DNA of 64,000 nucleotides from Thermodesulfobacteriota bacterium (GTDB taxonomy: Bacteria; Desulfobacterota; Binatia; HRBIN30; CADEER01), in assembly GCA_041743795.1 (NCBI GenBank), contig JBGTMF010000623.1:11851-75850 (forward strand), given 5' to 3'. Below the pieces are notes generated by a model. The model did no database searches, was not told the DNA's origin, and was given only the letters and a program-made list of their open reading frames with translations. Positions 1-24,100 of this stretch are shown here, piece after piece. The number at the start of each line of letters is the position of its first letter. Position 1 is the stretch's first letter. Both the position numbers and the translations under genes were made by a program.

Positions 1-240
1 AGGGAGCGCCGGCGGCCAGTTCGAAGCGGTCGAATTTCGGCTCGGCCGCGAAATCCGCAAGCGCCGCCGAAAGACCCGTTTCGGCGGCGATCATCGCCTC
101 CAGGCTTTCCCTCGCTCGGTGCTCGATCAGGAAGCTGACGACGGCCTGCTCCGACGCGAGTGAGGCGATCAAGAGGAGAAATGTCGACGCCAGCAGGGTG
201 GTGATCAGTGCCGCGCCGCGTTGTCGGGATTTCCTATCAG
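1..240 (-). CDS. GspK-like minor pseudopilin (3' end of the gene lies outside the window)
   Basis: Reverse-complement of 1-240 translates MANSDRKSRQRGAALITTLLASTFLLLIASLA..., a GspK-type N-terminus (G|AALITTLL followed by a hydrophobic helix). ATG at 238-240 overlaps the stop of the upstream pseudopilin gene (ATGA). Confidence 0.5.
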
Positions 241-860
241 AGTTGGCCATTGCGCAGTCCGACGGAGGTTCGATGTTCGACGGCAATGCGGTCTCGCGAG
301 CCGGCAACGGGGTGCGGCGCACTCAGCCGGAGTGTGATCTCGATCTGCCGAACGTCCGCCCTTTGGCCGGCTTCCAACTCGATACCCTCCGCGCCGATCT
401 CGTTGCCGGCCTCGTCGAGGAAGCGAAAGAGAACCTGCTCGGCATCGACATCTTGGACCATTGGTTGCGGCGATGCGCCGCCAAGCTGACGACGGAGCTG
501 GCCGAACTCGCTGTCGAGCGCGTATCCGACTCGTTCGTTGGCGGAACTCGTTTCTCCGTCCAGGTCGAGATCGCGCGCGAGGCGGATGTGGGTGCCGCTG
601 GCGGCGCGCAGACCGCGGTCGCCGGCGTCCGGCAACCCGTAGCCGACGTCGCGGATGTCACGCGCCATGATGTCGAGTGCGATGCGTGCGGTCTCGTCGA
701 GATCGTCCGCCACCTGGCGAACCCGCAACGCGTGCAGCGAGGTGGTTGCGAAACTTTGCAGAATTCCGGCCAACAGGCCGAGAAACATCATCGACAACAA
801 GGCGTCGACGACCGTCCAACCCCGCCGGTCGAGCCGCCACCAGTTCACAGACCTCGCCAC
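237..860 (-). CDS. GspJ-like minor pseudopilin
   Basis: N-terminus MARSVNWWRLDRRGWTVVDALLSMMFLGLLAG carries a prepilin-type class III signal (G|WTVVD) and hydrophobic helix. It sits third in an H-I-J-K series. Confidence 0.5.
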   Translation of the reverse strand: MARSVNWWRLDRRGWTVVDALLSMMFLGLLAGILQSFATTSLHALRVRQVADDLDETARIALDIMARDIRDVGYGLPDAGDRGLRAASGTHIRLARDLDLDGETSSANERVGYALDSEFGQLRRQLGGASPQPMVQDVDAEQVLFRFLDEAGNEIGAEGIELEAGQRADVRQIEITLRLSAPHPVAGSRDRIAVEHRTSVGLRNGQL

Positions 861-1192
861 AGCAGACCCTCCAACGCCAACTGTCGCTCGCCGCCGGCAC
901 GCCAGCGCACGGTGACGGTGAAGTGCGCCAGTCCCGGGTGGTCGTCGACGGACTGTAAATGCCAGGATGCCTCGAATGACCCGCCCGGCTCATTCACTTC
1001 GGAGCTGCCGCTGCGCAGTTGCTCGACGATGCTCATGGCGTGTTCTGTCGCCTGCAAATGGCGCGAACTGATCACCCGCTGGCTCGTCGTTCGCGCCATC
1101 GCGTCCATCAAGACGGTGCCGACCACTGCGAGCAGGGCGATCGCGGCGAGAGCTTCGACCGTGCTCATTCCCTTCTGGCCGCGTCCCGTCAT
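845..1192 (-). CDS. GspI-like minor pseudopilin
   Basis: MTGRGQKGMSTVEALAAIALLAVVG: prepilin cleavage motif (G|MSTVE) plus TM helix. Size (~115 aa) is typical of GspI/PilV-class proteins. Start overlaps the stop of the gene above. Confidence 0.5.
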   Translation of the reverse strand: MTGRGQKGMSTVEALAAIALLAVVGTVLMDAMARTTSQRVISSRHLQATEHAMSIVEQLRSGSSEVNEPGGSFEASWHLQSVDDHPGLAHFTVTVRWRAGGERQLALEGLLWRGL

Positions 1193-1635
1193 CGACGCAC
1201 CTGAACCCTTCCCACCATGTCGACGACGATGTCGCGTGTCTCACCCGTGTGGCCTCGTAGCGATACGGTGCCGAAGGTGGCGGCGTTGCCGCGCGGGCGG
1301 AATGCGATCGAACCGCCAGGCGCGGTGCATCGGGTTACGGCCACCCCGGCGGGAAGAACGCGCGGTACGCGCGCGTCGACGTATTTGCCGCCATCTGCCT
1401 GAACCTCGCGCCAGTAGGCGTCGGCGGCGGGGTCGAAACGCAGGCGGTGCGTCCGCGCCTCGGCGATTGCGCCGATGCGGGACATGCGCAGATCGAGGAC
1501 TATCTGGCGGACAGTTGCCTGCAGTTGCCACTGATGCCGCAGGTCGCGATAACCGAACCCCGCCAGTCCAAACAATACCGTTGCGATCGAGAGCGCGACG
1601 ACGATCTCGAGTAAGGTGATACCCGCAGGCCGCAT
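1189..1635 (-). CDS. GspH/FimT-family minor pseudopilin
   Basis: MRPAGITLLEIVVALSIATVLFGLA: canonical G|ITLLE prepilin motif with E5, ~148 aa. Lies immediately downstream of pilD. Confidence 0.6.
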   Translation of the reverse strand: MRPAGITLLEIVVALSIATVLFGLAGFGYRDLRHQWQLQATVRQIVLDLRMSRIGAIAEARTHRLRFDPAADAYWREVQADGGKYVDARVPRVLPAGVAVTRCTAPGGSIAFRPRGNAATFGTVSLRGHTGETRDIVVDMVGRVQVRR

Positions 1636-1719
1636 GCCGGGTGATCATAGGGACTTACGGTCTATGTGTCAAATAGTGCAGAGAGGGGTCTCCCGACTAC
1701 TTCGCCGCCCACTTCGTCG

Positions 1720-2484
1720 CTACTGTCGGGTGAGGTTCAAGTACCACTCGATGAGCGGATCGCCGGCGAAGAGGGCGGCAACCGCACCGACGGCGAGGAA
1801 CGGCCCGAACGGGATCGCCATTTGTCGACCTTCCCCACTGCGCAGCATCATGGCGAATCCCAAAGCCGTGCCGGAGAGCGACGCGATCATCAATGTCACT
1901 GGAATGGCCCGCCAACCGAGGAAGGCGCCGATCATGGCGAGAAGTTTGACGTCTCCCCCTCCCATCCCTTCGCGACCGGTCAGGCGAAAGTAGCCCTCCG
2001 CGATCGCCCAGAGGATACCGCCGCCGAGGAGGATGCCGATGAGGGAGTCGGTCCAGGCGGGATCGCCCGGCAAGAACGCTGCGGCGAGACCGATCGCGAT
2101 GCCGGGAAGGCTGATGACGTCGGGAATGATCTGGTGATCGATGTCGATAAACGTGATGACGATCAGCGCACAGAGAAACGCGAAGAAGAGGAGCGCCTGC
2201 GGATCGATGCCGAACACCGCGTAAGTCGCTACGCCGGCCAACCCCGTCAGTGCTTCGACGACCGGATAGCGGATCGAGATACCGGTCTGGCAATGGCGGC
2301 ATCGGCCGCGCAGGATCATGTAGCTGACGATAGGAATATTGTCCCACGGGCGGATGGGAGTGTGGCAGTGTGGACAGTGGGAGGCCGGAAAGGCAATCGA
2401 CTCGTCGCTCGGTATGCGATGGATGCATACATTGAGAAACGAGCCGATCATCGAAGCCAACAGGAAGACGAAGAACACAGTCAT
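1720..2484 (-). CDS. pilD: Prepilin peptidase / N-methyltransferase (A24 family)
   Basis: Tetracysteine motif CPHCHTPIRPW...RGRCRHC, multiple TM helices and the GGGDVKLL motif are characteristic of PilD/GspO. ATG start (MTVFFVF) is taken from inside the longer ORF. Confidence 0.9.
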   Translation of the reverse strand: MTVFFVFLLASMIGSFLNVCIHRIPSDESIAFPASHCPHCHTPIRPWDNIPIVSYMILRGRCRHCQTGISIRYPVVEALTGLAGVATYAVFGIDPQALLFFAFLCALIVITFIDIDHQIIPDVISLPGIAIGLAAAFLPGDPAWTDSLIGILLGGGILWAIAEGYFRLTGREGMGGGDVKLLAMIGAFLGWRAIPVTLMIASLSGTALGFAMMLRSGEGRQMAIPFGPFLAVGAVAALFAGDPLIEWYLNLTRQ

Positions 2485-2571
2485 GCAATCACCGTGGGGT
2501 GGGGACATCCCGACGCATACCGATCTGCGAAACGCGGGAGATGTACGCGAGGGAGTACCGGTCGTTGCGAC

Positions 2572-3537
2572 TCAGGCGGAACCGGACCCGGCGACTTTCT
2601 TCGCGCCGCGTCGAGCCGCCGCGCGTTTGGGCGAGAGCAGTTTGCTCTCGGCCGTCTCCGAGTCTCGAACCGAATCGATGCGCTCGCTGCGCATCAGGGA
2701 GATCTGTTCGGACACCAATCCCAGCATGAAAATGATGACCGCGGTGGAAATGAGCAAAGCCGCCATGTTGGTGAATCGGTGCACAGTGAGGAAGGTGTAC
2801 AGATAGTAGGACGCGCCGGTGGCGAAGAAGAACAGACTCACCGGCAGGAAGACGCGGAACGGCGCAAAAAGGGTCGCGATCTTGGTCAGGATCAAGAGAA
2901 ATCGGGTGCCGTCCTGCCAGATGCGAATCTTGCTCGTGCCGACACGGCGGCGAATGTCGATCGGAACGTAATGCAAGGTCAGGCCGCTGCGAAGGTACGC
3001 CAGGGTCAGGGTGGTCGGATACGAGAACGTATTCGGCAGAATCTCCAAGTAGCGTCGCACCTCGCTGGTCCGCATGGCGCGGAAGCCACTCGTAAGGTCG
3101 CGCACGGGGAACTCGCTTACGTACGTTGCCAGGCGATTGTAGATCGTATTGGCGATCCAGCGATGCCAGCCGGCCTGTCCAGATCCGGGGCGCGCGCCGA
3201 CGACCATGTTGAAGCGCTTCAGATGAGTCACAAGGTTGCGAACATCGGCGGCCTGGTGCTGCCCGTCGGCGTCCATCAGGACGACGTACCGCCGCGACGC
3301 GTGGCGCAAGCCGGTCTTTACCGCCGCGCCGTTGCCAATGTTGTACGCGTGGGAGATCACCCGGGCGCCGTGTGCCGCGGCGATGGCGGGGCTCTCATCG
3401 GTCGAGCCGTCGTCGATCACCAGGATCTCCGCCCCTGGAAGTTCGGCGGAGAGCGAATCTACCAGGAGAGCGATCGACTGCGCCTCGTTGAACGCCGGAA
3501 TGATGATACTGAGTTCGTCGTTGGCAATCGAAGTCAT
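2572..3537 (-). CDS. GT2-family polyprenyl-phosphate glycosyltransferase (DPM1/ArnC/GtrB-like)
   Basis: Internal ATG (MTSIANDELSIIIPAFNEA...ILVIDDGSTDES...MDADGQH) gives ~320 aa with GT-A DxD-type motifs and two C-terminal TM helices. That is the architecture of Pol-P-sugar synthases that feed GT-C enzymes. The N-terminal 150 aa of the listed ORF is Arg/Pro-rich junk. Confidence 0.8.
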   Translation of the reverse strand: MTSIANDELSIIIPAFNEAQSIALLVDSLSAELPGAEILVIDDGSTDESPAIAAAHGARVISHAYNIGNGAAVKTGLRHASRRYVVLMDADGQHQAADVRNLVTHLKRFNMVVGARPGSGQAGWHRWIANTIYNRLATYVSEFPVRDLTSGFRAMRTSEVRRYLEILPNTFSYPTTLTLAYLRSGLTLHYVPIDIRRRVGTSKIRIWQDGTRFLLILTKIATLFAPFRVFLPVSLFFFATGASYYLYTFLTVHRFTNMAALLISTAVIIFMLGLVSEQISLMRSERIDSVRDSETAESKLLSPKRAAARRGAKKVAGSGSA

Positions 3538-3563
3538 CTCCCGCTCTCTTCCGCCGGCCGCGC

Positions 3564-5321
3564 TCAGAGGATCTCGTAGAGCCCGAACGCTCCGTGGCTG
3601 TGGATGAGGCGCAGATGCTGCGTGGCGAAACCGTCCCAGCGCTGCATCTCGGTTGCCGTCAGGTCCTCCTTGAGGAAGCGACCCAGCAGGGGCGCCGAGG
3701 CTGCGATATGGCTGAGTCCCATCTCCTGCAACTGAGCTGACACACCTCTCGGGCTTGCGGCGGTACGTACCGCGTCGCGAATCGTCGTGCCGGAATAGTA
3801 GTAGTCGTATGTATAGGGGCGCTTCCAGTAGTAGCCGCGCTGCCCGAGAAACGCCAGGTGCACATTGGCGTTGGCCGGCAGATTCTCGCTGGCAAACCTG
3901 GAAAGTGGGTACTCGGGGACGAAACGGGTGATGAACTCCTGCCGACTTTCGCGGCCGCGGAGATAGGCTCCCGGCGACATGAGATTCCAATAGTCCGCGA
4001 AGTGCCAGAGGTTGAACGCGAGCGCAGCGGCACCGAGCGCGGGCAGGAGAAGACGCGCGCTCGGCAATGCCGTTCGCCAGCGATCCAGCAGCGCCGCCGT
4101 GAGAATTGCCAGTGCGACCAAAGAGGCGATCGCGTAGCGGCTGCGGAACGTGGTGAGGAGAAAAACCATCGCCAGGACGGCGAGCGCGAAGATCCAGAGG
4201 TAATCCATCTTGGCGGTTCGGCGACCGCTGAGAATTGCGGCGAATCCGAAGAGGAAAAGCGGGTTGAACGCACCGTCGAAGCGCGCCGGGTCGCCGAAGC
4301 GGCCGATGACGAAGGCGCGAAATGGCGTCGTCAGAATCTCGATCCAGGATTCGTTGTAGAGAAACATGCGCTTGGTGAAAATGTCGATGGATGGCGAATC
4401 GGCGCGCGGCGGACCGCCCAGGGTGCCGCGCAAAAGCGGGAATACAGGGTTGCCGGTCTCGAAGTAGTTGCGGAGCAACCAGGGTGCCAGCGGTACGATG
4501 GCCAGAGCGCCGAAGATCGCGATATTGCGCAGGATGGAAACCGCGTCACGCCGCGGTGCAAGAGTGATCGTGCCGACCAGGAGCAAGGGCAGCGTCAGGT
4601 AGCCGTTGTACTTGACCGAGGCCGCGCAGCCGGCGGCAAATCCGGCCAGGCCGAGCAGGCCGGTTTGCTCGCTCTCCGACCAGCGCAGCAGCGCGACGAC
4701 CGAGACGGTGGTGAAGAAGAGCAGGCCGAGATCGACGTAGGCGCTGGATGCGAGAGTCGCGAATGTGGGAGTCGTCAAGATCAGCAGCGCGACAAAGGCG
4801 GCGACGCCAATCGCCACGGTCGATGAAAGGTAGACGTAGAGGATGGCGACGCTGGCCAGGCCAAAGAACATATGTAGGTACTTCGGCGCGCTCTCCCAAC
4901 CCTGGGCGAGAAGCGGCGTGTACAGCAACGTCAGTTGCATGGGGAAATACGACTGTTCGGCGAACGGATACACCACGGCGCGTCCTTCCTCGAGGAACAG
5001 CGCCGGAAGGGCGAGATGGTGGGTCAGCTCGTCTCGCGCTACGGGAGGGAGTAGGTTCAAGACGACGAGCGCCGCGACGAAGACGAGCCCAGCGGCGAGG
5101 AACAACCAACTCGCGGTGTTCCGCGCGGCCGCGGCGAACGCGCTGACGACGATCGCGATCAGCAGCAGGGCGACGCTTCCGGGCACTAGCAAGCCGGCGA
5201 CGGATGCGATGCCGTGACCATTCGCGGCGAGAATGAAGTAGAGCGTGCCGATCACCCCAACCGCACCGCCACTCCACAGCGACCGATCCAGTGCGAGGGT
5301 CGTGTCGCGATCGCCGATCAC
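3564..5321 (-). CDS. GT-C fold membrane glycosyltransferase (GT39/GT83, PMT/ArnT-like)
   Basis: 585 aa with ~11 predicted TM helices. The first periplasmic loop has the ARDELTHH (DE) motif typical of PMT/ArnT lipid-carrier-dependent glycosyltransferases. GTG start at 5319-5321 overlaps the TGA stop of the ABC permease (GTGA coupling). Confidence 0.7.
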   Translation of the reverse strand: MIGDRDTTLALDRSLWSGGAVGVIGTLYFILAANGHGIASVAGLLVPGSVALLLIAIVVSAFAAAARNTASWLFLAAGLVFVAALVVLNLLPPVARDELTHHLALPALFLEEGRAVVYPFAEQSYFPMQLTLLYTPLLAQGWESAPKYLHMFFGLASVAILYVYLSSTVAIGVAAFVALLILTTPTFATLASSAYVDLGLLFFTTVSVVALLRWSESEQTGLLGLAGFAAGCAASVKYNGYLTLPLLLVGTITLAPRRDAVSILRNIAIFGALAIVPLAPWLLRNYFETGNPVFPLLRGTLGGPPRADSPSIDIFTKRMFLYNESWIEILTTPFRAFVIGRFGDPARFDGAFNPLFLFGFAAILSGRRTAKMDYLWIFALAVLAMVFLLTTFRSRYAIASLVALAILTAALLDRWRTALPSARLLLPALGAAALAFNLWHFADYWNLMSPGAYLRGRESRQEFITRFVPEYPLSRFASENLPANANVHLAFLGQRGYYWKRPYTYDYYYSGTTIRDAVRTAASPRGVSAQLQEMGLSHIAASAPLLGRFLKEDLTATEMQRWDGFATQHLRLIHSHGAFGLYEIL

Positions 5322-6088
5322 TTGAACTCTCGGCGTGCGAACAGTCCGACGGCGAGGAGAAGAAGCACGGCGCTGTACGAAAGAGCGTAGGCCGTCAAAA
5401 ATAGCATGGTGCCGACGGCGACCGACTCTCCGTAGACCAAACGATCGGCGAGCAGGAAGTGATCCAGTCGTGGTAGCGCGGCGTGTAGGACCTTGGCCGC
5501 GACGCGGAGCAGGGAGTTGGTGGTGTCGGAGAGGAAATAGTCGAGGTACTGCGTCGAGCGCCCGGCGATGAAACAGCCGATCGTAAACATGCCGGCGAGG
5601 GTCGGCGTGACGACCAGGGAAGAGAAGAATACCGCGAAAGCGACGACGATCATGATCTCGAGCAGCGACGCCGCGGCGGCGACGAGGATTCCCGGATCAA
5701 ATCGCCCTTCGAGGAACCACAGAAACATTGCCAGGCCGGCTGCCATGCTGACGATCACGGCGACCAGGGTGGCGAAGAGACCGAGAAACTTGCCGAGGAC
5801 GAACTGCCAGCGCGCGACCGGTTTCGACAGTGTATTTAGGATCGTCTTGTGTTGCAGCTCCTGCTGCAGCAGGTTGACGCCGAGGACGACGGCGATGATG
5901 ACCCCGAAGAGGGAGATGCTCATCAGGCTGAAATCCTTGATATAGCGGATCTGATCGCCGATCGACGCCGATCCGAAGATCGTAGAGATGCCGACCATCA
6001 AAATGGCAAACGCGAGAATCGAGTAGAGAACCCGGCTGCGAACCGCTTCTCGCGTCGTGTTCAACGCCAATGCTAGTACCTTGTTCAT
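5318..6088 (-). CDS. ABC-2 type transporter permease (PilI-like by position)
   Basis: MNKVLALALNTTREAVRSRVLYSILAFAILMVG..., ~256 aa, six hydrophobic segments, ABC-2 permease-like. Immediately downstream of the ABC ATPase. Confidence 0.75.
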   Translation of the reverse strand: MNKVLALALNTTREAVRSRVLYSILAFAILMVGISTIFGSASIGDQIRYIKDFSLMSISLFGVIIAVVLGVNLLQQELQHKTILNTLSKPVARWQFVLGKFLGLFATLVAVIVSMAAGLAMFLWFLEGRFDPGILVAAAASLLEIMIVVAFAVFFSSLVVTPTLAGMFTIGCFIAGRSTQYLDYFLSDTTNSLLRVAAKVLHAALPRLDHFLLADRLVYGESVAVGTMLFLTAYALSYSAVLLLLAVGLFARREFK

Positions 6089-6202
6089 GGTCGCAACGCC
6101 TCTGGGATCGCGCGCCGCTTCGCCGCACGCACTTCGCTTTCGCGCGGATGCATCCACTGCACGCGATCGGCACCGCCGTCCCACCGACTCGACTGCGAGT
6201 TG

Positions 6203-7120
6203 CTAGTTGCCGGCATGGCGAAGAAATCGCTCCTCGAGAGTGGTGTGGCGCGGTGTAATTCGTTCGATCGAGGCGGAGTTTCGGCGAATCAGGTCGACGG
6301 CTTCGTCCACCAGTTTCAGTCCAGGCACCGTGATCAAATGCACGCCATCGCGCGTTACCACCGATGTTCCGGGAAGTTGGGCGAGGGCGTCGGGGATCGC
6401 TCCGTTGCTGCTGCGGACTTCCAACTCGTAGGATGTCGCGTCTGAATGGTCCGCCACCGTGATGATCTCGCGCAGTCGACCGGCTGTAAGTATACCGACG
6501 CGGTCGCACAGCGTTTCGGCGTCGGACAGGATGTGTGACGAGAAAATGATACTGGTGCCGCCGTTGCGCAGGTCGAGGATCAGATCGCGCATCTCCCGGC
6601 GGCCTACCGGGTCGAGGCCGGACATGGGCTCGTCGAGAATCAGCAAACGCGGTCGGTTGAGAATCGCCTGCGCGACGCCGACTCGCTGTAGCAAACCCTT
6701 CGACAGCGTGCGCATCGCGGCACGCCGCTTTTCTTGCAGGCCCAGGCGTTCGATCACCTCGTCGATGCGCGCGGTCCGTGGCGAACGCTCGATCCCGTAC
6801 AAATTGCCGAACAGCCGAAGGGTTTCCTGAACCGTCAGGTACTCGTAGAAGTAGGGGTGTTCGGGCAAAAAGCCGATCTCCGCCTTGGCGGCGGCAGTCA
6901 AAGGTTGGTCGTCGAAGAGAATCTGCCCCGAGGTCGGCCGCAGGAAACCGAGGATCAGCTTGAACGTCGTCGTCTTTCCGGCGCCATTCGGGCCGAGTAG
7001 GCCGAAGCACTCGCCGCTCCGCACTGCCAGGTCGATTGCGTTGAGGACCCGTGTCGGCCGGAAGGTCCAGTCGCTTCGGTAGTCCTTGCAGAGTTTTCGA
7101 ATGTCCAGGATATCAGCCAT
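6203..7120 (-). CDS. ABC transporter ATP-binding protein (PilH-like by position)
   Basis: Walker A GPNGAGKTT, signature LSKGLLQRVGVAQA, Walker B LLILDEPMSGLD, H-loop SSHIL. Confidence 0.85.
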   Translation of the reverse strand: MADILDIRKLCKDYRSDWTFRPTRVLNAIDLAVRSGECFGLLGPNGAGKTTTFKLILGFLRPTSGQILFDDQPLTAAAKAEIGFLPEHPYFYEYLTVQETLRLFGNLYGIERSPRTARIDEVIERLGLQEKRRAAMRTLSKGLLQRVGVAQAILNRPRLLILDEPMSGLDPVGRREMRDLILDLRNGGTSIIFSSHILSDAETLCDRVGILTAGRLREIITVADHSDATSYELEVRSSNGAIPDALAQLPGTSVVTRDGVHLITVPGLKLVDEAVDLIRRNSASIERITPRHTTLEERFLRHAGN

Positions 7121-7128
7121 CGGATTGC

Positions 7129-8049
7129 CTATTGGCCGAGCAACTCAGCGCCGTATTTGCCTTGCAGGGCGCGCTCTCGAATCTTGCTGCGGTAGCTCCG
7201 CGTTGGCGATCTACCGGTGGAGGACTGCGCCTTGCCATCGGGACCGATCTCGAAGTGTCCGCCCATTGGGTCGTGCGGAATTCCCTGCAGGAGGCCGGCG
7301 GTGACCATCTCCTCGAGGGACGATGGCGCTCGGCCGTTGGACTTCTCGAACGCTTCGATCTGGTTGTCGAGATCGAGGAGGATCGAGGCAGCGGTGGCTT
7401 CTTTCAGGTTGCGCTGGATGACGTCGCGAATCTGTTGCGACTCCGCGTTCTGTTCGAGATCGCGCAGGAAGGCCATTGCCGTTTCTGGGCCGGAGGTTTC
7501 CGTCGTGACGATCGTCGCCAGGCGCGCCACTGCAGGGTGCGCGCCGGGAAGGCGTACGGAGCGCTGTAAGTATTCGGAAGCGCGCTCTCCGTCGTTGTTG
7601 AAGAAGAAGTGCAGGAAACCGAGGTAGTACGAAAGGTCCCAGGCATCGGGGATGGCGTTCACGCCTTTCTCGAGAATGCGGATTCCGGCGTCGACCTCGC
7701 CGGCCTCCCAGGGGAGGATCAACCCGGCGAAGCGGTAGACGTGCTCGGCGCGGGGATCGAGGTCGGTGACCAACTCGCAGATGTGGGCGAGCCAGGGGTA
7801 GGTGCGATCACTGCGGTAGTGTTTGCCGAAATAGCTGATCGCGCGGAACCACAGGACGTCGGCGAGGACGTTGTGGTAGCCCAACGAAAGCGGACGCAGC
7901 AACTCGGCTCGCGGCAGATAGACAGGCTCTTCCAATTTCTCGGCTGACATCTCGTGTCGGTCGAGCGTGGCGCGAAACATCCCCGTCGTTGCGCTGAGCA
8001 ACGTCAGCGCTATGGCGAAGAGGGCACAACGTATGGCCAGTGCCGAATT
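7129..8049 (-). CDS. Secreted/lipoprotein-like hypothetical protein in the pilG position
   Basis: Internal start MNSALAIRCALFAIALTLLSATTG (signal peptide). No recognisable catalytic motifs. Located between pilA and the ABC ATPase, as pilG is in M. xanthus. Confidence 0.45.
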   Translation of the reverse strand, partial: NSALAIRCALFAIALTLLSATTGMFRATLDRHEMSAEKLEEPVYLPRAELLRPLSLGYHNVLADVLWFRAISYFGKHYRSDRTYPWLAHICELVTDLDPRAEHVYRFAGLILPWEAGEVDAGIRILEKGVNAIPDAWDLSYYLGFLHFFFNNDGERASEYLQRSVRLPGAHPAVARLATIVTTETSGPETAMAFLRDLEQNAESQQIRDVIQRNLKEATAASILLDLDNQIEAFEKSNGRAPSSLEEMVTAGLLQGIPHDPMGGHFEIGPDGKAQSSTGRSPTRSYRSKIRERALQGKYGAELLGQ

Positions 8050-8181
8050 CATCTGGGTCGGGATTATACCTGCTGCGGGCAGCATGCGAAGTCGAATGTT
8101 GCGTCGCCTACGATGAGGGAAGAGGAGCCGGTATCGCCGCCATCCAGACACGGTGAGAGCTGTCGGCTCGCCGCGGCGGGG

Positions 8182-8213
8182 AAAAAAAAAGGGAGGGCTC
8201 GAAAGCCCTCCCT
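8182..8213 (-). terminator. Rho-independent terminator downstream of pilA
   Basis: Perfect 10-bp stem (agggagggct / agccctccct) with cgaa loop at 8190-8213. On the minus strand it is followed by a T9 run (plus-strand A-run 8182-8190). It lies 22 nt after the pilA stop. Confidence 0.75.
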
Positions 8214-8234
8214 TTGGTCGTTGCGGGGCAACCC

Positions 8235-16192: not shown

Positions 16193-18975
16193 GGATCGGG
16201 ATGAACGCCGAGCGCCGCGTGCGCCGCGGCGAGCCGTGCGACCGGCACGCGATAGGGCGAGCAGGACACGTAATCCAAGCCGAGGTGATGGCAGAACATG
16301 ACCGAGGCCGGTTCGCCGCCGTGTTCGCCGCAGATTCCGAGCTTGATGTCTGGGCGGGTCTTGCGGCCGCGCTCGACCGCGATCGAGATGAGCTCGCCGA
16401 CCCCGGTGCGATCGAGGACGGCGAACGGGTCCTCGGGTAGGATTCCGTTCTTGACGTAACTGGGAAGAAACTGGCCGGCATCGTCGCGGCTGAGGCCGTA
16501 GGTGCACTGGGTCAGGTCATTGGTACCAAATGAGAAGAACTCTGCTTCGCTAGCGATCTCTCCGGCGGTGAGAGCGGCCCGCGGCAACTCGATCATCGTG
16601 CCGATCGGCGGCGTCAGCCGCAGCCCGTACTGCTCGGCCGTGACGGCGAGCGCCGCCAGGGTCTGCTTCCGAACCACGGCGAGTTCGCGGACATGGCTGA
16701 CCAGTGGAATCATGATCTCGGGGAATACCTTGAGCCCTTCGTTGCGCAATTCACAGGTGGCTTCGCCGAGGGCCCGCACCTGCATCTGGTAGATTTCCGG
16801 GTACGTGATTCCCAGCCGACAACCCCGCAATCCGAGCATCGGGTTCACTTCGGACAGGGTGTCGCGTGCCTCTCGCAAGCGATCGACCGAGGCACCGAGC
16901 TTGTCCGCCAACTCGATCAACTCGTCGTCCGTCGCCGGCAGGAACTCGTGTAGCGGCGGATCGAGCAGGCGGACGGTCACAGGTCGGTCGACCATGACGC
17001 GCAAGATGGCGAGAAAGTCGAGCTTCTGCATCGGCAGCAGCTTGGCCAGCGCGCGCTCGCGACCGTCGCGGTCGGCGGCGAGAATCATTTCCCGCACAGT
17101 GTCGATGCGATCGCCGTCGAAAAACATGTGCTCGGTGCGGCAGAGGCCGATTCCCTCTGCGCCGAATAGTCGCGCAACCGTTGCATCGCGCGGCGTATCG
17201 GCGTTGGCGCGAACGCGTAGCTTGCGAAAGCCGTCGGCCCACTTCATGAACGTGGCGAAGCTGCCGCCGGGTTCGGGAATGGTCGTCGCCACGGTGCCTG
17301 CGAAGATCTCTCCGCTCGACCCGTCGAGAGTGATCCAATCGCCGGGGCGAACTTGGTGCTCGCCGATTCTCGCGCTCTGCGCTGCATAGTCGACGTGCAG
17401 ATCCCCGCAGCCCGAAACGCAACATTTGCCCATACCCCGGGCGACCACGGCCGCATGCGACGTCATCCCGCCGCGCGCCGTGAGAATCCCCTGGGCAACG
17501 CTCATTCCGTGGATGTCTTCAGGCGACGTTTCGATGCGTACGAGGATGACGCGCTTGCCCCGTTGATCCGCCTGCACGGCCTGATCGGCGGAAAAGACCA
17601 CCTCGCCCGAGACGGCGCCGGGCGACGCGGGAAGCCCTTTGGCGATCGGTTTCGGCCGCGCCTTGGGGTCGATCTGCGGGTGCAGGAGTTGATCGAGCTG
17701 GGCCGGCGCGACGCGGAGCACCGCGGTCTTCCGGTCAATGAGCTTTTCCGCCTCCATGTCGACGGCGATCTTAACGGCCGCGTGCGCGGTTCTCTTCCCC
17801 GATCTCGTCTGCAGCATCCACAGCTTCGATCGCTCGATCGTGAACTCGAGATCTTGCATGTCGCTGTAGTGCTGTTCGAGTTGGCGCGCGATGCGTTTCA
17901 GCTGGCTGAAACACCGCGGCATCAACTCTTCGAGCGACCTTGGCCGCAATTCTTCAGCCACATCGGAAGCGCGCGCCTGCTCGATCGCCGCGGCACGTGT
18001 GATCGACTGTGGCGTGCGCGTGCCGGCGACGACGTCTTCGCCCTGGGCGTTGACGAGGAACTCGCCGTACAGGCCTTTCGCCCCGGTGGCGGGGCTGCGC
18101 GTGAAGGCGACGCCGGTCGCGCAGTCGTCGCCGAGGTTGCCAAACACCATGGCCTGGATGTTGACCGCGGTGCCCCATTCGTCGGGAATGCGGTTCAGTC
18201 GGCGATACGTGTTCGCACGGGGGTTGTCCCACGAGCGAAAGACGGCGCCGATCGCAGCCCACAACTGTTCGCGCGGATCCTCGGGAAATGCGACACCGAG
18301 GCGCTTGCCGATCAGCTGCCGGAAGTCTTCGGCGAGATCGCGTAAGTCGTCGGCGCCGAGGTCGGTATCGAGAGTCGCGCCACGCGCCGCTTTGCGCCGC
18401 TGCAAGACTTTCTCGAAGGGGTCCTCCTCCTCGTCGGAGGACGGTCGCAGTCCGAGAACCACATCGCCGAACATCTGGACGAAGCGGCGGTAACAATCGT
18501 AGCCGAAACGCGCGCTGCCCGATTCTCGGATGAGTCCGAGAACCGTAGAGGAATTCAGTCCGAGGTTGAGTACCGTGTCCATCATCCCCGGCATCGAAGT
18601 GCGCGATCCCGAGCGCACCGACAACAGCAGAGGTGCCTGCGAATCTCCGAAGCGGCGGCTGAGGCGCGACTCCATGCGCGCCAGGGCCTTGTCGACCTGC
18701 TCGCGCAAGGCGTCCGGGTAATCCCCGCCGTGGGCGCGGTAGTAGGTGCAGACGTCGGTGGTGATGGTGAATCCCGGTGGCACCGGAACGCCGAGCAGCG
18801 ACATCTCCGCCAGATTGGCGCCCTTGCCTCCAAGTGTATTCCGCAGGCCGGCGCCGCCTTCCGCACGGCCGTCACCGAAGGAGTAGACCAGCTTGTCGCC
18901 GCGCTTCGCTTGTCCCGTTCCGGACCGCGCCCGCCTCGCCGCCGGCGCGGCCCGCTTCGACGTCTTCGCACCCAT
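16189..18975 (-). CDS. ppdK: Pyruvate, phosphate dikinase
   Basis: ...KLVYSFGDGRAEGG...GGKGANLAEMSLLGVPVPPGFTITTDVC... and the central phospho-His and PEP-utilising domains through to a TIM-barrel C-terminus. Start taken at MGAKTSK; the true start may lie nearer KLVYSF. Confidence 0.9.
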   Translation of the reverse strand: MGAKTSKRAAPAARRARSGTGQAKRGDKLVYSFGDGRAEGGAGLRNTLGGKGANLAEMSLLGVPVPPGFTITTDVCTYYRAHGGDYPDALREQVDKALARMESRLSRRFGDSQAPLLLSVRSGSRTSMPGMMDTVLNLGLNSSTVLGLIRESGSARFGYDCYRRFVQMFGDVVLGLRPSSDEEEDPFEKVLQRRKAARGATLDTDLGADDLRDLAEDFRQLIGKRLGVAFPEDPREQLWAAIGAVFRSWDNPRANTYRRLNRIPDEWGTAVNIQAMVFGNLGDDCATGVAFTRSPATGAKGLYGEFLVNAQGEDVVAGTRTPQSITRAAAIEQARASDVAEELRPRSLEELMPRCFSQLKRIARQLEQHYSDMQDLEFTIERSKLWMLQTRSGKRTAHAAVKIAVDMEAEKLIDRKTAVLRVAPAQLDQLLHPQIDPKARPKPIAKGLPASPGAVSGEVVFSADQAVQADQRGKRVILVRIETSPEDIHGMSVAQGILTARGGMTSHAAVVARGMGKCCVSGCGDLHVDYAAQSARIGEHQVRPGDWITLDGSSGEIFAGTVATTIPEPGGSFATFMKWADGFRKLRVRANADTPRDATVARLFGAEGIGLCRTEHMFFDGDRIDTVREMILAADRDGRERALAKLLPMQKLDFLAILRVMVDRPVTVRLLDPPLHEFLPATDDELIELADKLGASVDRLREARDTLSEVNPMLGLRGCRLGITYPEIYQMQVRALGEATCELRNEGLKVFPEIMIPLVSHVRELAVVRKQTLAALAVTAEQYGLRLTPPIGTMIELPRAALTAGEIASEAEFFSFGTNDLTQCTYGLSRDDAGQFLPSYVKNGILPEDPFAVLDRTGVGELISIAVERGRKTRPDIKLGICGEHGGEPASVMFCHHLGLDYVSCSPYRVPVARLAAAHAALGVHPDP

Positions 18976-21960: not shown

Positions 21961-22029
21961 AAATACGACAAGGGATCAGGCGATCGAGTCTCGCAACACG
22001 AACCGTCTCGATGCCCAAGGAGATGAATC

Positions 22030-23943
22030 ATGGGTAAAGTCATTGGAATTGATTTGGGAACGACAAATTCTTGCGTCGCTGTGATGGAGGGTGGCGATCC
22101 TCAGGTGATCGCCAACTCCGAAGGAAGCCGCACTACTCCCTCGGTGGTCGCGTTCTCTGAGTCCGGCGAGCGCTTGGTGGGCCAGATCGCCCGCCGCCAG
22201 GCGGTCACCAATCCCGAGAACACCGTGCATGCGGTGAAACGGTTGATTGGTCGCCGTTACGAGGATGCGGAAACGAGGAAGGCCGAGGCACTCTCGCCAT
22301 ACAAAATCGTCAAAGCGGACGGAGGAGACGCCTGGGTCGAGGTTCGCGGCAAGAAATACAGTCCGCCGGAGATCTCCGCATTCATCCTGCAGAAGATGAA
22401 GCAAACGGCAGAGGACTACCTCGGAGAGCCCGTTACCGAGGCGGTGATCACCGTTCCGGCGTATTTCAATGATAGCCAGCGCCAAGCTACAAAGGACGCC
22501 GGTCGCATCGCGGGTCTCGACGTTCTGCGCATCATCAATGAGCCGACGGCGGCGTCGCTGGCCTACGGCCTGGACAAGAAGAAGGACGAGAAGATTGCCG
22601 TATTCGACCTTGGCGGCGGCACGTTCGACGTCTCGATTCTCGAACTCGGCGACGGCGTCTTCGAAGTCAAGGCGACCAACGGCGACACCTATTTGGGTGG
22701 CGAGGACTTCGACCAGCAGGTGATCGACTACCTGGCGACGGAGTTCAAGAAGGATCAAGGGATCGATCTGCGCCAGGACCGCATGGCGCTGCAACGTCTC
22801 AAGGAGGCGGCGGAGAAGGCGAAGTGCGAGCTCTCGACGGTGGCGGAGACGGACATCAATCTGCCGTTCGTCACGGCCGACCAGAGCGGCCCCAAGCACC
22901 TTTCGATGAAATTGTCGCGCGCCAAGCTGGAAGCGCTCTGTGGCGAGTTGCTGGATCGACTGGACGGTCCCTGCAAAATGGCGCTGCGCGACGCGGGCAT
23001 CGCTGCCAGTGACGTCGACGAGGTGATACTCGTCGGTGGAATGACGCGCATGCCTGCGGTGCAGTCGCGCGTGCAGAAGATCTTCGGCAAAGAACCGAGC
23101 AAGGGCGTCAACCCGGACGAGGTGGTTGCGATCGGCGCCGCGATTCAGGGCGGAGTGCTGAAGGGCGACGTCAAGGACGTGTTGTTGCTCGACGTCACGC
23201 CGCTGTCGTTGGGGATCGAGACTCAGGGCGGTGTTTTCACCAAGCTGATCGAGAAGAACACGACGATTCCAGCCAAGAAGAGCCAGATCTTCAGCACCGC
23301 GGCGGACAGCCAGACGGCGGTTACGATCAGCGTCTACCAAGGTGAGAGAGAGATGGCGAGCGGCAACAAGTTGCTCGGTCAGTTCAATCTCGAGGGAATT
23401 CCGCCCGCGCCGCGTGGCGTGCCGCAGATCGAGGTGACCTTCGATATCGATGCCAACGGTATCGTCCACGTCGCCGCCAAGGACAAGGGCACCGGCAAGG
23501 AGCAGTCCATCCGTATCACCGCCTCGAGTGGTTTGAGCGAGGACGAGATCAAGAAGATGATCCGCGACGCGGAAGATCATGCCGAGGAAGATCGCAAACG
23601 CCGCCAGGCGGTGGATGCGAGGAATCAACTGGATACGCTGATTCACCAGACGGAGAAACACCTCGGCGAGCACGGCGCCGATCTCTCGCCTGAGGACAAG
23701 AGCGCCATCGACTCCGCCCTGGAGGGTGCCAAGAGTGTGCTCGAGAGCGAGGATGCCGATGTGCTCAAATCGGCTCTCGACAAGCTGACCCAGGTGCAAC
23801 ACAGTCTGGCGGAGAAGATGTATGCGAAAGCGGCGCAGGATTCGGCGTCTGGCGATTCGCAGGGCGGCGGTGCCGCGTCGGATTCGAGTGGCCGAGCGGA
23901 CGACGATGTCGTCGACGCTGATTTCGAGGAAGTGAAGGAATAG
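22030..23943 (+). CDS. dnaK: Molecular chaperone DnaK (Hsp70)
   Basis: [22 protein letters not shown]...[12 protein letters not shown]...[11 protein letters not shown]...: full-length Hsp70 with the acidic C-terminal ...EEVKE tail. Confidence 0.95.
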
Positions 23944-23971
23944 AGAAACCTCACGGCAACCAACAGTGAGC

Positions 23972-24008
23972 GAAAGCCCTCGCCGCACGAAGTGCGGAGA
24001 GGGCTTTC
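23972..24008 (+). terminator. Strong hairpin between dnaK and dnaJ (partial terminator/attenuator)
   Basis: gaaagccctc-gccgcac-gaa-gtgcggc(a)-gagggctttc: 10-bp outer plus 6-bp inner stem, 28 nt after the dnaK stop. There is no T-run, so it is likely a read-through attenuator or mRNA stabiliser. Confidence 0.4.
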
Positions 24009-24100
24009 GTGCGCTTGCAAGATCGCGGGATTGTGGTCCGGCGCGATGAGCAACGAGCCGCACGGAACGATATCCGGCGAGCTGCGACGACGGAGAATTC

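Follow-up and report, generated by a model that had tools for sequence, protein, structure and literature searches.

To our knowledge, pilin-glycosylating enzymes are known in two kinds, the Wzy_C-type O-oligosaccharyltransferases (TfpO/PglL) and TfpW. TfpO/PilO, which is encoded beside pilA, and PglL are Wzy_C-domain enzymes that glycosylate pilin in the periplasm by moving preassembled Und-PP-linked oligosaccharides. TfpW, the pilin D-arabinofuranosyltransferase of Pseudomonas aeruginosa group IV strains (Pa5196/PA7), is an ArnT-like GT-C enzyme encoded beside pilA that glycosylates the pilin from a lipid-monophosphate sugar (bioRxiv 10.1101/2020.04.19.049825; PMC11194591). This membrane enzyme, modelled on ArnT, O-glycosylates Ser/Thr residues of the pilin at the periplasmic face; its gene is located directly after pilA, the protein ends in a TPR domain and bears both a DDX motif and a proline-rich chain-length motif, and its donor is supplied by DprE1/DprE2-type enzymes and not by a GT2 enzyme. 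In the Ppm1/Pmt system of actinobacteria and the DPM1 and PMT1/2 enzymes of eukaryotes (GT39), a GT2 enzyme makes a polyprenyl-phosphate sugar and a GT-C enzyme puts the single sugar on Ser/Thr residues of exported proteins, and the same pairing of GT2 and GT-C enzymes is seen in ArnC/ArnT (GT83), which act in the aminoarabinose modification of lipid A. Three-component systems (GtrABC, CsbB/GtcA/YfhO and the pentofuranose system of Kelly et al.) also combine a lipid-linked monosaccharide synthase with a GT-C enzyme acting after export, together with a flippase of their own and glycan or teichoic-acid acceptors (PMC11194591, PMC5836110).

The stretch of DNA analyzed here (64,000 nucleotides, referred to as the window) has the backbone pilB-pilT-pilC-regulator-pilA-ABC transporter-pilD in common with the Myxococcus xanthus pil locus and the Geobacter xapD region. 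In Myxococcus, pilus biogenesis has long been known to depend on PilGHI, and no glycosyltransferase is known to be encoded between pilI and pilD of M. xanthus. For Desulfuromonadales, insertions in the interval from pilH to pilD have been described (PMC6060248). In the window, a GT-C glycosyltransferase gene (3564-5321, 585 aa) and a gene for a GT2 enzyme of the polyprenyl-phosphate sugar synthase type (2572-3537, 321 aa) are present, both on the minus strand and both where the preliminary description had placed them. The flanking genes, all on the minus strand as well, were also as described there: upstream lie pilA for the major type IVa prepilin (8235-8633; NCBIfam prepilin N-terminal domain), a pilG-like accessory gene (7129-8052) whose product has one N-terminal membrane helix, matched no Pfam family and was assigned on its conservation beside pilH and pilI in related loci, a pilH-like ABC transporter ATPase gene (6203-7120; Pfam ABC_tran, E 5.5e-32) and a pilI-like ABC-2 permease gene (5318-6088; Pfam ABC2_membrane_2 and alignment), while pilD for the prepilin peptidase/N-methyltransferase (1720-2508; Pfam A24_N_bact, E 1e-35, and Peptidase_A24, E 6e-24) follows 63 bp after the GT2 stop codon. 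Three minor-pilin-like ORFs (1189-1635, 845-1192 and 237-860) with prepilin-like N-termini (MRPAG/ITLLEIVVAL, QKG/MSTVEALAAIAL and RRG/WTVVDALLSMMF) prolong the operon past pilD in an order that is matched in the related locus L081. The genes from pilG through pilD are tightly packed, and the GTG start codon of the GT-C gene (5321) overlaps the TGA stop codon of the permease gene (5318-5320) as GTGA in the context AAGTGATC, in agreement with the translational coupling that had been proposed. Gene calls in the relatives L081 and L082 show this 4-nt overlap too, and it is kept from Binatia to Desulfococcus. Directly 3′ of pilA, a terminator-like hairpin with a 12-bp stem followed by a T run (8188-8215, minus strand) was detected, so that the pair, whose GT-C gene starts 2.9 kb downstream of pilA and behind pilGHI, may lack co-transcription with pilA. 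The two glycosyltransferase genes are the only glycan genes in the window. No flippase gene (GtrA/GtcA, ArnEF or MATE) and no small ORF with four transmembrane helices was found in the locus, which differs in this respect from the three-component systems.

The 585-aa protein is a distant member of the PMT/ArnT superfamily of GT-C enzymes, predicted from its structural model to face the periplasm. It passed the gathering threshold of the Pfam PMT family PF02366 (37.7 bits against 22.7), with similarity spanning only about 130 residues, and fell just under that of PMT_2 (23.1 bits against 26.1). A profile search of the PDB returned yeast Pmt2 as the sole match (E 8e-4), whereas a single-sequence phmmer search of the PDB returned chance matches only. 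The AlphaFold2 model (mean pLDDT 93.6, pTM 0.93) has the polytopic GT-C fold, and a Foldseek comparison with solved structures placed ArnT first (5ezm/5f15, E 3e-6, TM 0.53-0.57), followed by STT3/AglB/PglB, AftA, ALG9 and Pmt4, with probability 1.00; identity to the Pmt chains was 14-20%. The preliminary description had located a DE motif in the first extracytoplasmic loop. Three predicted membrane helices precede the periplasmic loop PPVARDELTHHLA, which holds the predicted catalytic Asp97; since distant homologs lack the first ~70 residues, this loop, lying past the first core helix, is nevertheless the counterpart of the first loop in canonical GT-C enzymes. The aspartate of the motif is invariant across 66 sequences of the family, but E98 is variable and is replaced by Ala throughout one subfamily (clade II), so that D97 alone is conserved; other invariant positions include V196, K237, GNP290-292, R318, R335, F348, G350 and R395. 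In the model, the C-terminal part (~450-585) forms a mixed alpha/beta periplasmic domain, and neither a TPR domain (no Pfam family match) nor a MIR protein-binding domain was found in the protein. Like TfpW, the window enzyme is a GT-C protein encoded in a pilin locus, but, compared by description, it has an alpha/beta C-terminal domain in place of a TPR domain, an RDE motif in place of DDX, a gene located behind pilGHI and a GT2 synthase as partner. It differs from Pmt in the lack of MIR, in very low identity, in a Gram-negative-type organism as host and in the pilus locus. A separate GT-C-like protein bearing a TPR domain, with an architecture nearer to that of TfpW than the window enzyme, is encoded in related loci.

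For the GT2 gene, the ATG at 3537 with GGGAG upstream was taken as the start codon, and a 472-aa ORF beginning at 3990 was rejected as an over-extension. The product matched Pfam Glycos_transf_2 (E 7.8e-30) and has, as described before, a GT-A domain (DAD at residues 89-91 as the DXD motif) and two C-terminal hydrophobic segments (~213-241 and ~258-276) that correspond to membrane-anchor helices. Polyprenyl-phosphate sugar synthases (AglJ, PpgS, ArnC, DPMS and GtrB/sll0501) make up all of its best matches in NCBIfam and the PDB, with ArnC being the best PDB sequence match. In NCBIfam, AglJ (125 bits over residues 9-287, cut-off 325), PpgS (84 bits against 370), ArnC (52 bits against 529) and the Dol-P-hexose transferase model were all matched below their equivalog cut-offs. 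As judged from sequence, the class of the enzyme is clear, i.e., that of a polyprenyl-phosphate sugar synthase, with the sugar specificity lying beyond the reach of the equivalog models. The enzymology proposed for the pair, a lipid-carrier sugar synthase and a periplasm-facing GT-C transferase, is therefore upheld by the Pfam, NCBIfam, PDB and structural comparisons. An identity with ArnC/ArnT was rejected given the low ArnC score, the lack of any match to the NCBIfam ArnT model, the absence of arnA/B/D or arnE/F-like genes within the operon and the pilus genes that surround the pair. Likewise, TfpO/PglL identity was ruled out because no Wzy_C domain was matched in either protein in Pfam.

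PilA, the acceptor suggested in the preliminary description, has the leader MKAITIRMKDKG followed by FTLIELLVV and a mature length of 120 aa. Its alignment with 35 further short pilins from related loci extends through to the C-terminal residue, and the unusual Ser/Thr-rich C-terminal tail that had been ascribed to it does not exist as an extra segment; the Ser/Thr-rich stretch is the ordinary beta-sheet globular domain of a short pilin. When the presence of such a tail was compared with the presence of the pair across loci, there was consequently no tail to score. The median Ser/Thr content was 0.26 in pilins linked to the GT-C gene and 0.19 in pilins from PilI loci without the pair (Mann-Whitney p 2e-5); since the two sets differ in length (108-130 and 137-201 aa, respectively) and in lineage, this difference is confounded and is not counted as evidence.

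Comparative analysis showed that the GT-C protein belongs to a large, uncharacterized family whose members come mainly from Candidatus Binatia and Desulfobacterota; a relative is encoded in at least 569 matched stretches of species-representative genomes, and 2,746 proteins were retrieved with a clade II query at E ≤ 1e-10. An exact-sequence lookup of the protein itself matched no recorded contig. In a set of 83 loci seeded by GT-C homology alone, 48 had at least 6 kb of upstream DNA, and an upstream pilin gene on the same strand was present in 23 of these (8 of 9 in clade I, 12 of 15 in clade II and 3 of 24 in clade III); with few pilin genes per genome, chance alone would give about 1 in 48. 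The order pilA-pilG-pilH-pilI-GT-C-GT2-pilD was seen in every close relative (L001-L003, L081 and L087), and the window and its five closest relatives keep the pair with no other glycan genes in the locus. Further away, the order pilA-pilGHI-GT-C occurs in Desulfobacter curvatus and Desulfococcus (L050, L054 and L072), pilA directly precedes the GT-C gene by 52 bp (L057), 184 bp (L033) and 265 bp (L067), several clade II loci run from pilA to the GT-C gene with no pilGHI, and locus L166 reads pilA-pilG-pilH-pilI-(TPR GT-C-like)-GT-C-minor pilins-PilY1, its stop and start codons overlapping. Given that these architectures vary between lineages, selection rather than inheritance alone is suggested, and the link with the pilus proved stronger than originally claimed, the family recurring beside pilA in distant lineages. 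When 80 loci were gathered with PilI as seed, pilH-pilI(-pilG) was as a rule followed straight by pilD, with the pair in the closest relative only, which bears out its description as an insertion into the pil operon and makes it specific to a lineage. A search with a Desulfobacter curvatus member for a link to Geobacter xap/pilA gave only Desulfobacterales-type proteins among the best 120 homologs, and a literature search on PMT-like or ArnT-like enzymes in pilus loci and on Binatota pili gave nothing relevant beyond TfpW.

Taken together, the location of the pair inside a pil cluster and of its relatives beside pilin genes in many bacteria makes it a credible, although unproven, new pilin-glycosylation system, and the earlier interpretation as a whole is partly supported. 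The pair would be a lipid-carrier-dependent system for extracytoplasmic monosaccharide glycosylation that was recruited into a type IVa pilus locus, with the major pilin PilA as its most likely target and minor pilins as possible ones. Going by homology, the GT2 enzyme would transfer one sugar from a nucleotide sugar to undecaprenyl or polyprenyl phosphate at the cytoplasmic face of the inner membrane, and the lipid-linked sugar would then be flipped to the periplasmic leaflet, a step for which the locus offers no gene. The GT-C enzyme, with the fold and the Asp97 loop seen in the model, would move the sugar to a Ser/Thr residue of what is presumed to be the pilin, probably while this is membrane-anchored with its globular domain in the periplasm and before PilD processing and assembly. 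As the window holds no glycan genes besides the pair, a single sugar per site would be expected, as in Ppm1/Pmt or a single-sugar TfpW-like system. That the pair is dedicated to the pilus and puts single sugars on pilin, in a TfpW-like or Pmt-like way, is in our view about as likely to be right as wrong. The enzyme identities, the TfpW precedent, the operon position, the conserved gene order and the family-wide pilin link were counted in its favor; counted against it were the lipid acceptor of ArnT, the closest solved fold, the clade III clusters and glycan islands described below, the lack of TPR and MIR domains, the hairpin and the pilHI loci free of the pair.

As the main alternative, the pair could act in the periplasm to modify a surface glycan or LPS (a side branch of the O-antigen, the core or lipid A), in the manner of GtrB/GtrC, GmlB/GmlC or ArnC/ArnT, its place in the pil locus being a relic of a polysaccharide island between pilA/pilGHI and pilD. 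This is possible but doubtful. The top structural match to ArnT fits it, as does clade III, where the same pair (GT2 54-61% identical to that of the window) mostly heads Wzm/Wzt O-antigen-like clusters with GT4, Wzm (ABC2_membrane), Wzt (ABC_tran and Wzt_C), methyltransferase, UDP-glucose dehydrogenase and epimerase genes and no pilin gene within 10 kb, also in MAGs labeled Verrucomicrobiota, Acidobacteriota-like and Eisenbacteria. With this sister subfamily heading polysaccharide clusters, PilA stays a candidate acceptor, and an unproven one. Some relatives have a whole glycan island between pilA/pilGHI and pilD, the slot being filled in L082, L050 and L078 by GT4, DegT, acetyltransferase, sulfotransferase and LPG_synthase_TM genes. 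Such an island could serve to make a surface polysaccharide, a role proposed for the Geobacter xap genes (PMC5585712, PMC4974642). Against this, the window clade keeps the pair without such genes, so that its acceptor cannot be a glycan from a cluster encoded in the locus; no glycan cluster follows the GT-C gene of L166, which stands after pilI and ahead of the minor pilin/PilY1 genes, the PilI permease is of the ABC2_membrane_2 and not the Wzm type, and no match at equivalog level to the ArnC or ArnT models was obtained. The Geobacter ABC ATPase gene xapD (GSU1501), located near pilA (GSU1496), was reported to belong to an exopolysaccharide exporter (PMC5585712, PMC4974642), but an xapD mutant was later reported to be without PilA (bioRxiv 10.1101/114900), and thus even the xap system may be pilus-related.

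A proposal that we consider unlikely is that envelope proteins other than the major pilin are glycosylated, such as minor pilins, PilY1, secretin-associated proteins or, as with actinobacterial Pmt, many periplasmic proteins. The Pfam PMT match, yeast Pmt2 as the only solved relative by profile and the minor pilin genes after pilD in the window and directly after the GT-C gene in L166 are consistent with it; the recurrent partner across lineages is, however, pilA itself, in places immediately adjacent, and nothing sets this proposal apart from pilin modification. It is more improbable still that the pair and the PilGHI transporter are one machine, in which PilHI flips or delivers the lipid-linked sugar or exports a glycolipid for pilus assembly, with a glycoconjugate and not a glycosylated pilin as the output. 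The conserved pilI/GT-C overlap, the missing dedicated flippase gene and the unexplained part of PilGHI in pilus biogenesis (PMC6060248) speak for it. The GT-C gene is absent from most pilHI(G) loci, and the clade II loci that lack pilGHI argue against it as well. In addition, we know of no ABC-2 transporter of the PilI type that flips polyprenyl-monophosphate sugars. Also rather unlikely, in our view, is the broad claim that the pair is the conserved core of an undescribed pilus-locus pilin O-glycosylation system, widespread in Binatia and Desulfobacterota, in which PilGHI flips or hands over the polyprenyl-phosphate sugar.

If the pair modifies a surface glycan after all, it would be a Gtr/Arn-like system of an ordinary sort that happens to lie in an unusual location. 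Should pilin prove to be the acceptor, the GT-C family would add a third kind to the pilin-glycosylating enzymes, and a coupling to PilGHI, if true, would give this transporter a biochemical role; the conserved pilI/GT-C coupling provides a handle on it. The family is carried by anaerobes and soil bacteria that are uncultured or little studied, and the pili of some of their relatives are discussed for electron transfer and syntrophy. If such pilins carry glycans, their surface chemistry, phage sensitivity and heterologous expression would have to be interpreted differently.

The type IVa pilus genes of the window form a compact cluster on the minus strand (bases 1-16,500), which runs from aroE (15323-16507) through pilB (13570-15288), pilT (about 12416-13600), pilC (10971-12236), a gene for a 700-aa regulator (8865-10967), pilA (8235-8633), a pilG-like gene (7129-8052), a pilH-like ABC ATPase gene (6203-7120), a pilI-like ABC-2 permease gene (5318-6088), the GT-C gene (3564-5321), the GT2 gene (2572-3537) and pilD (1720-2508) to three minor-pilin-like ORFs (1189-1635, 845-1192 and 237-860), all on that strand. 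The gene positions agreed with the preliminary description, which had placed the GT-C/GT2 pair between the ABC permease gene and pilD, as did the overlap of the pilI stop codon by the GTG start of the GT-C gene (AAGTGATC). The gaps from the GT-C to the GT2 gene and from the GT2 gene to pilD are 27 and 63 bp, respectively. Directly 3′ of pilA lies a terminator-like hairpin with a 12-bp stem and a T run (8215-8188, minus strand), and a promoter-like site precedes pilG (8090-8063). These two elements suggest that pilA is transcribed mostly alone, and the pair probably shares a transcript with pilGHI and pilD and not with pilA. The remainder of the window carries housekeeping genes (ppdK, a tRNA synthetase, recO, grpE/dnaK/dnaJ and others), and ORF inspection of the 64-kb window found no further glycan genes in it. 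A 695-aa ORF at 21976-24063 (minus strand) matched the Pfam family NAD-GH (PF10712; E 4e-178); its exact antisense is a dnaK-like ORF (22030-23943, plus strand), and it was rejected as a gene, being almost certainly a shadow ORF. The 700-aa regulator is a single protein that joins, with no histidine-kinase or receiver domain, a six-helix membrane domain of the PilS type (PF25323) and a PAS domain directly to a sigma-54 AAA+ domain plus a Fis-type HTH. The same fusion was called in two related loci, L081 and L082. In other pilus loci its matches are split between a pilS-like and a pilR-like gene; it looks like a one-component substitute for the PilS/PilR two-component pair.

The 585-aa protein scored 37.7 bits against Pfam PMT (threshold 22.7), with the match covering residues 149-279 only, and an AlphaFold2 model built with a 66-sequence alignment was confident (mean pLDDT 93.6, pTM 0.93). 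The best matches of this model among solved structures were to ArnT (E 3e-6, TM 0.53-0.57), followed by the oligosaccharyltransferases STT3/AglB/PglB, AftA, ALG9 and Pmt4, while yeast Pmt2 was the only solved relative by sequence profile (E 8e-4). Together, the Pfam match, the model and the structural matches identify the protein as a GT-C enzyme, and of the PMT/ArnT type that had been proposed for it. The DE motif assigned to its first extracytoplasmic loop stood only in part: D97, within the loop PPVARD(E/A)LTHHLA, is invariant across 66 homologues, as are residues including V196, K237, G290-N291-P292, R318, R335, F348, G350 and R395, whereas E98 varies and is Ala in one subfamily. Three membrane helices precede this loop in the window protein. 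In distant homologues the first ~70 residues are missing and a single helix comes before the loop; the D97 loop is therefore the counterpart of the first external loop in canonical GT-C enzymes.

The GT2 gene starts with an ATG at 3537, preceded by GGGAG, and its 321-aa product matched the Pfam GT2 family (E 7.8e-30). Near matches were all polyprenyl- or dolichyl-phosphate sugar synthases; AglJ (125 bits over residues 9-287), PpgS, a haloarchaeal Dol-P-hexose transferase and ArnC each scored below the equivalog cut-off, and matches in the PDB were ArnC, DPMS and sll0501/GtrB. With a DAD at 89-91 and two C-terminal hydrophobic segments, the protein has the DPM1/ArnC/GtrB-type architecture noted before, and by sequence it clearly appears to be of the polyprenyl-phosphate sugar synthase class, although the matches do not fix the donor sugar. 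In the 71%-identical relative L081, the GT2 position (11785-12731) was called as two short ORFs of 39 and 228 aa, neither with a Pfam match, which may reflect a long-read assembly frameshift or a decaying gene. The GT2 enzyme would make a polyprenyl-P-sugar in the cytoplasm and the GT-C enzyme would move the single sugar at the periplasmic face, an enzymology that we consider secure. No flippase gene of the GtrA, ArnEF or MATE type is present in the locus, so that flipping of the donor is not explained by it; the flippase is the sole component of the classical three-component system missing here (PMC11194591).

In chemistry the pair is like Ppm1/Pmt and ArnC/ArnT. Orthology to ArnT/ArnC, the outcome that the preliminary description had regarded as damaging to its own reading, was rejected because the scores fell below the model cut-offs and arn genes are absent from the operon, and a TfpO/PglL enzyme was rejected because the protein has no Wzy_C domain. 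In presumed biology the pair resembles TfpW, which has a TPR domain that the window GT-C protein lacks.

A word-indexed search returned about 67 close GT-C homologues, every one metagenomic. In a scan limited to one genome per species there were at least 600 matching stretches; at least 569 of them encode a GT-C relative, chiefly from Candidatus Binatia and Desulfobacterota. The relatives nearest to the window are Binatia MAGs, which suggests that the window derives from this phylum. When the Desulfobacter curvatus member was used as query, 2,746 proteins were found at E <= 1e-10, under generic NCBI names ("ArnT family", "family 39" or "phospholipid carrier-dependent" glycosyltransferases). 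The window pilus proteins were mapped onto 83 loci by tblastn and pilin genes were located by their N-terminal motif, pilin counts being taken over loci with at least 6 kb of upstream DNA (48 of 83). A neighbour-joining tree, midpoint-rooted and without bootstrap support values, divided the GT-C proteins into three groups, which are distinct in motif and architecture as well. Clade I, the window and its Binatia relatives (42-72% identity), has an upstream pilin in 8/9 assessable loci, a GT2 orthologue within 30 bp in 9/10 and pilD downstream in 6/7. Clade II (Desulfobacterales, Syntrophales, Desulfobulbales and Desulfarculia; motif RDAL, no N-terminal extension) has an upstream pilin in 12/15, three of them only 52-265 bp away, and an adjacent GT2 orthologue in only 1/26. 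Clade III (30-36% identity) comprises Binatia, "delta" MAGs and a few MAGs labelled Verrucomicrobiota, Acidiferrales or Eisenbacteria; its GT2 orthologue is adjacent in 32/34 and 54-61% identical to the window GT2, and a pilin lies within 10 kb upstream in only 3/24 and pilD within 10 kb downstream in 5/18. Overall, 23 of the 48 assessable loci have a same-strand upstream pilin gene. Genomes of several megabases carry a handful of pilin genes, and therefore about one linked locus of 48 would be expected by chance. Independent gene calls and precomputed Pfam matches agreed with this pattern. In the clearest case, locus L166, pilA, pilG, pilH, pilI and a gene for a 698-aa PMT_2+TPR membrane protein precede the GT-C gene, three N_methyl minor pilins, PilX_N and PilY1 follow it, and stops and starts overlap from pilH through GT-C. 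Cultured carriers of the family include Desulfobacter curvatus DSM 3379, with the order pilA-pilGHI-TPR protein-GT-C (L050), and the deltaproteobacterium NaphS2 (L164).

For the converse comparison, a metagenome scan was seeded with a PilI alignment and yielded 80 loci. Nearly all of these showed the order pilH-pilI-pilG-pilD or pilA-pilG-pilH-pilI(-pilD) with no GT-C gene, and the pair was present only in L087, the closest relative (PilI 86% identical). The pair is thus a lineage-specific insertion into a widespread backbone, in line with the insertion into the pilus operon described earlier, and the linkage is one-sided: the GT-C family favours pilus loci, yet most pilus loci lack the GT-C gene.

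The unusual Ser/Thr-rich C-terminal tail attributed to PilA was not borne out. Mature PilA (120 aa) could be aligned to its last residue with 35 pilins (108-130 aa) encoded upstream of family members, and in this alignment the S/T-rich stretch is the small beta-sheet domain of the pilin and not an appendage. Strand patterns alternate in PilA as usual (TVTxTM, FTGT, TFxYDS), and it carries a motif of clade I, FTGT[SA]xSxxGSG. Pilins of PilI loci without the pair are longer (137-201 aa), and their median S/T content is somewhat lower (0.19, against 0.26 for GT-C-linked pilins), but differences in size and lineage confound this comparison.

Several relatives carry a complete glycan island in the slot between pilA/pilGHI and pilD. 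In L082 a TMTC_DUF1736+TPR protein lies between pilH and pilI, and GT4s, methyltransferases, LPG_synthase_TM and DegT lie 3′ of GT2; the D. curvatus slot (L050) contains a 698-aa TPR membrane protein, an acetyltransferase, a sulfotransferase, a GT4 and more; and in L078 an 822-aa YfhO-like protein (2393-4861) directly after pilA is followed by another PMT_2 enzyme together with a GT2 of its own, the family pair, three GT4s and a sulfotransferase, and then by pilD and minor pilins. These could be pilin-glycan islands or surface-polysaccharide clusters. A second membrane protein, of ~570-700 aa and with TPR repeats, adjoins pilI and/or the GT-C gene in related loci (L082 7519-9240; L050 7847-9943; L166 5908-8004; L165 5804-7918 and 9644-11722), and no such gene is present in the window; that of L166 matched PMT_2 weakly and that of L082 matched TMTC_DUF1736. 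In architecture, a GT-C-like domain plus TPR, these proteins resemble TfpW and the eukaryotic TMTC O-mannosyltransferases. Locus L004 encodes an 861-aa PTPS_related membrane protein (7404-9986) between pilI and the GT-C gene; given the extra large GT-C-like proteins of L078 and L004, some pilus loci hold three different lipid-carrier-dependent transferases. In clade III loci, the gene immediately 5′ of the GT-C gene encodes a small protein (82-85 aa) with a biotinyl/lipoyl-like domain (L078 9644-9901; the locus of P0057, 9599-9847). In Geobacter, only a few genes separate pilA (GSU1496) from xapD (GSU1501), which encodes an ABC ATPase and was reported as an exopolysaccharide exporter (PMC5585712, PMC4974642); according to a later report, however, the xapD mutant lacks PilA (bioRxiv 10.1101/114900). 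Geoalkalibacter and Geopsychrobacter were reported, with no functional comment, to carry 14 kb of inserted DNA between pilD and pilH (PMC6060248).

As to the acceptor, we give the pilin, or the pilin plus minor pilins, about an even chance. A pilus target is favored by the recurrence of linkage to pilA in varied architectures, by the close packing of the pair in one operon with pilI, pilD and minor pilins, by the gene order of L166, and by the retention of the pair in the window clade with all other glycan genes gone. Until assembly, pilin is anchored in the inner membrane and exposes its globular domain to the periplasm, where GT-C enzymes act. TfpW provides a precedent for GT-C action on pilin in the periplasm (bioRxiv 10.1101/2020.04.19.049825). 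A surface glycan or LPS as acceptor is possible, if rather doubtful; it accords with how GT2/GT-C pairs generally behave in Gram-negative bacteria and with clade III, in which the pair stands first in gene clusters of the kind used for ABC-transporter-dependent polysaccharide synthesis (GT4 enzymes, Wzm, Wzt with a Wzt_C domain, methyltransferases, UDP-glucose dehydrogenase and epimerases), with housekeeping genes directly upstream of the pair in at least one locus. The best structural match, ArnT, has a lipid acceptor, and the pilin reading is further complicated by the glycan islands in the slot of relatives, by the lack of a TPR or MIR domain in the window GT-C protein, and by the hairpin that probably keeps the pair off the pilA transcript. 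Other envelope proteins are unlikely acceptors, and a joint PilGHI/glycolipid function of the pair is slightly less likely still.

The literature search found no description of a PMT/ArnT-like GT-C family in pilus loci, in keeping with the earlier view that a Pmt/Ppm-like route in a pil locus is undescribed, and the striking linkage of this large family to the pilus seems not to have been reported. Both GT-C-mediated pilin glycosylation and lipid-carrier modification systems are established concepts. Against this background, and with PilA a candidate acceptor only, we consider the significance of the finding moderate despite the size of the family and its linkage.
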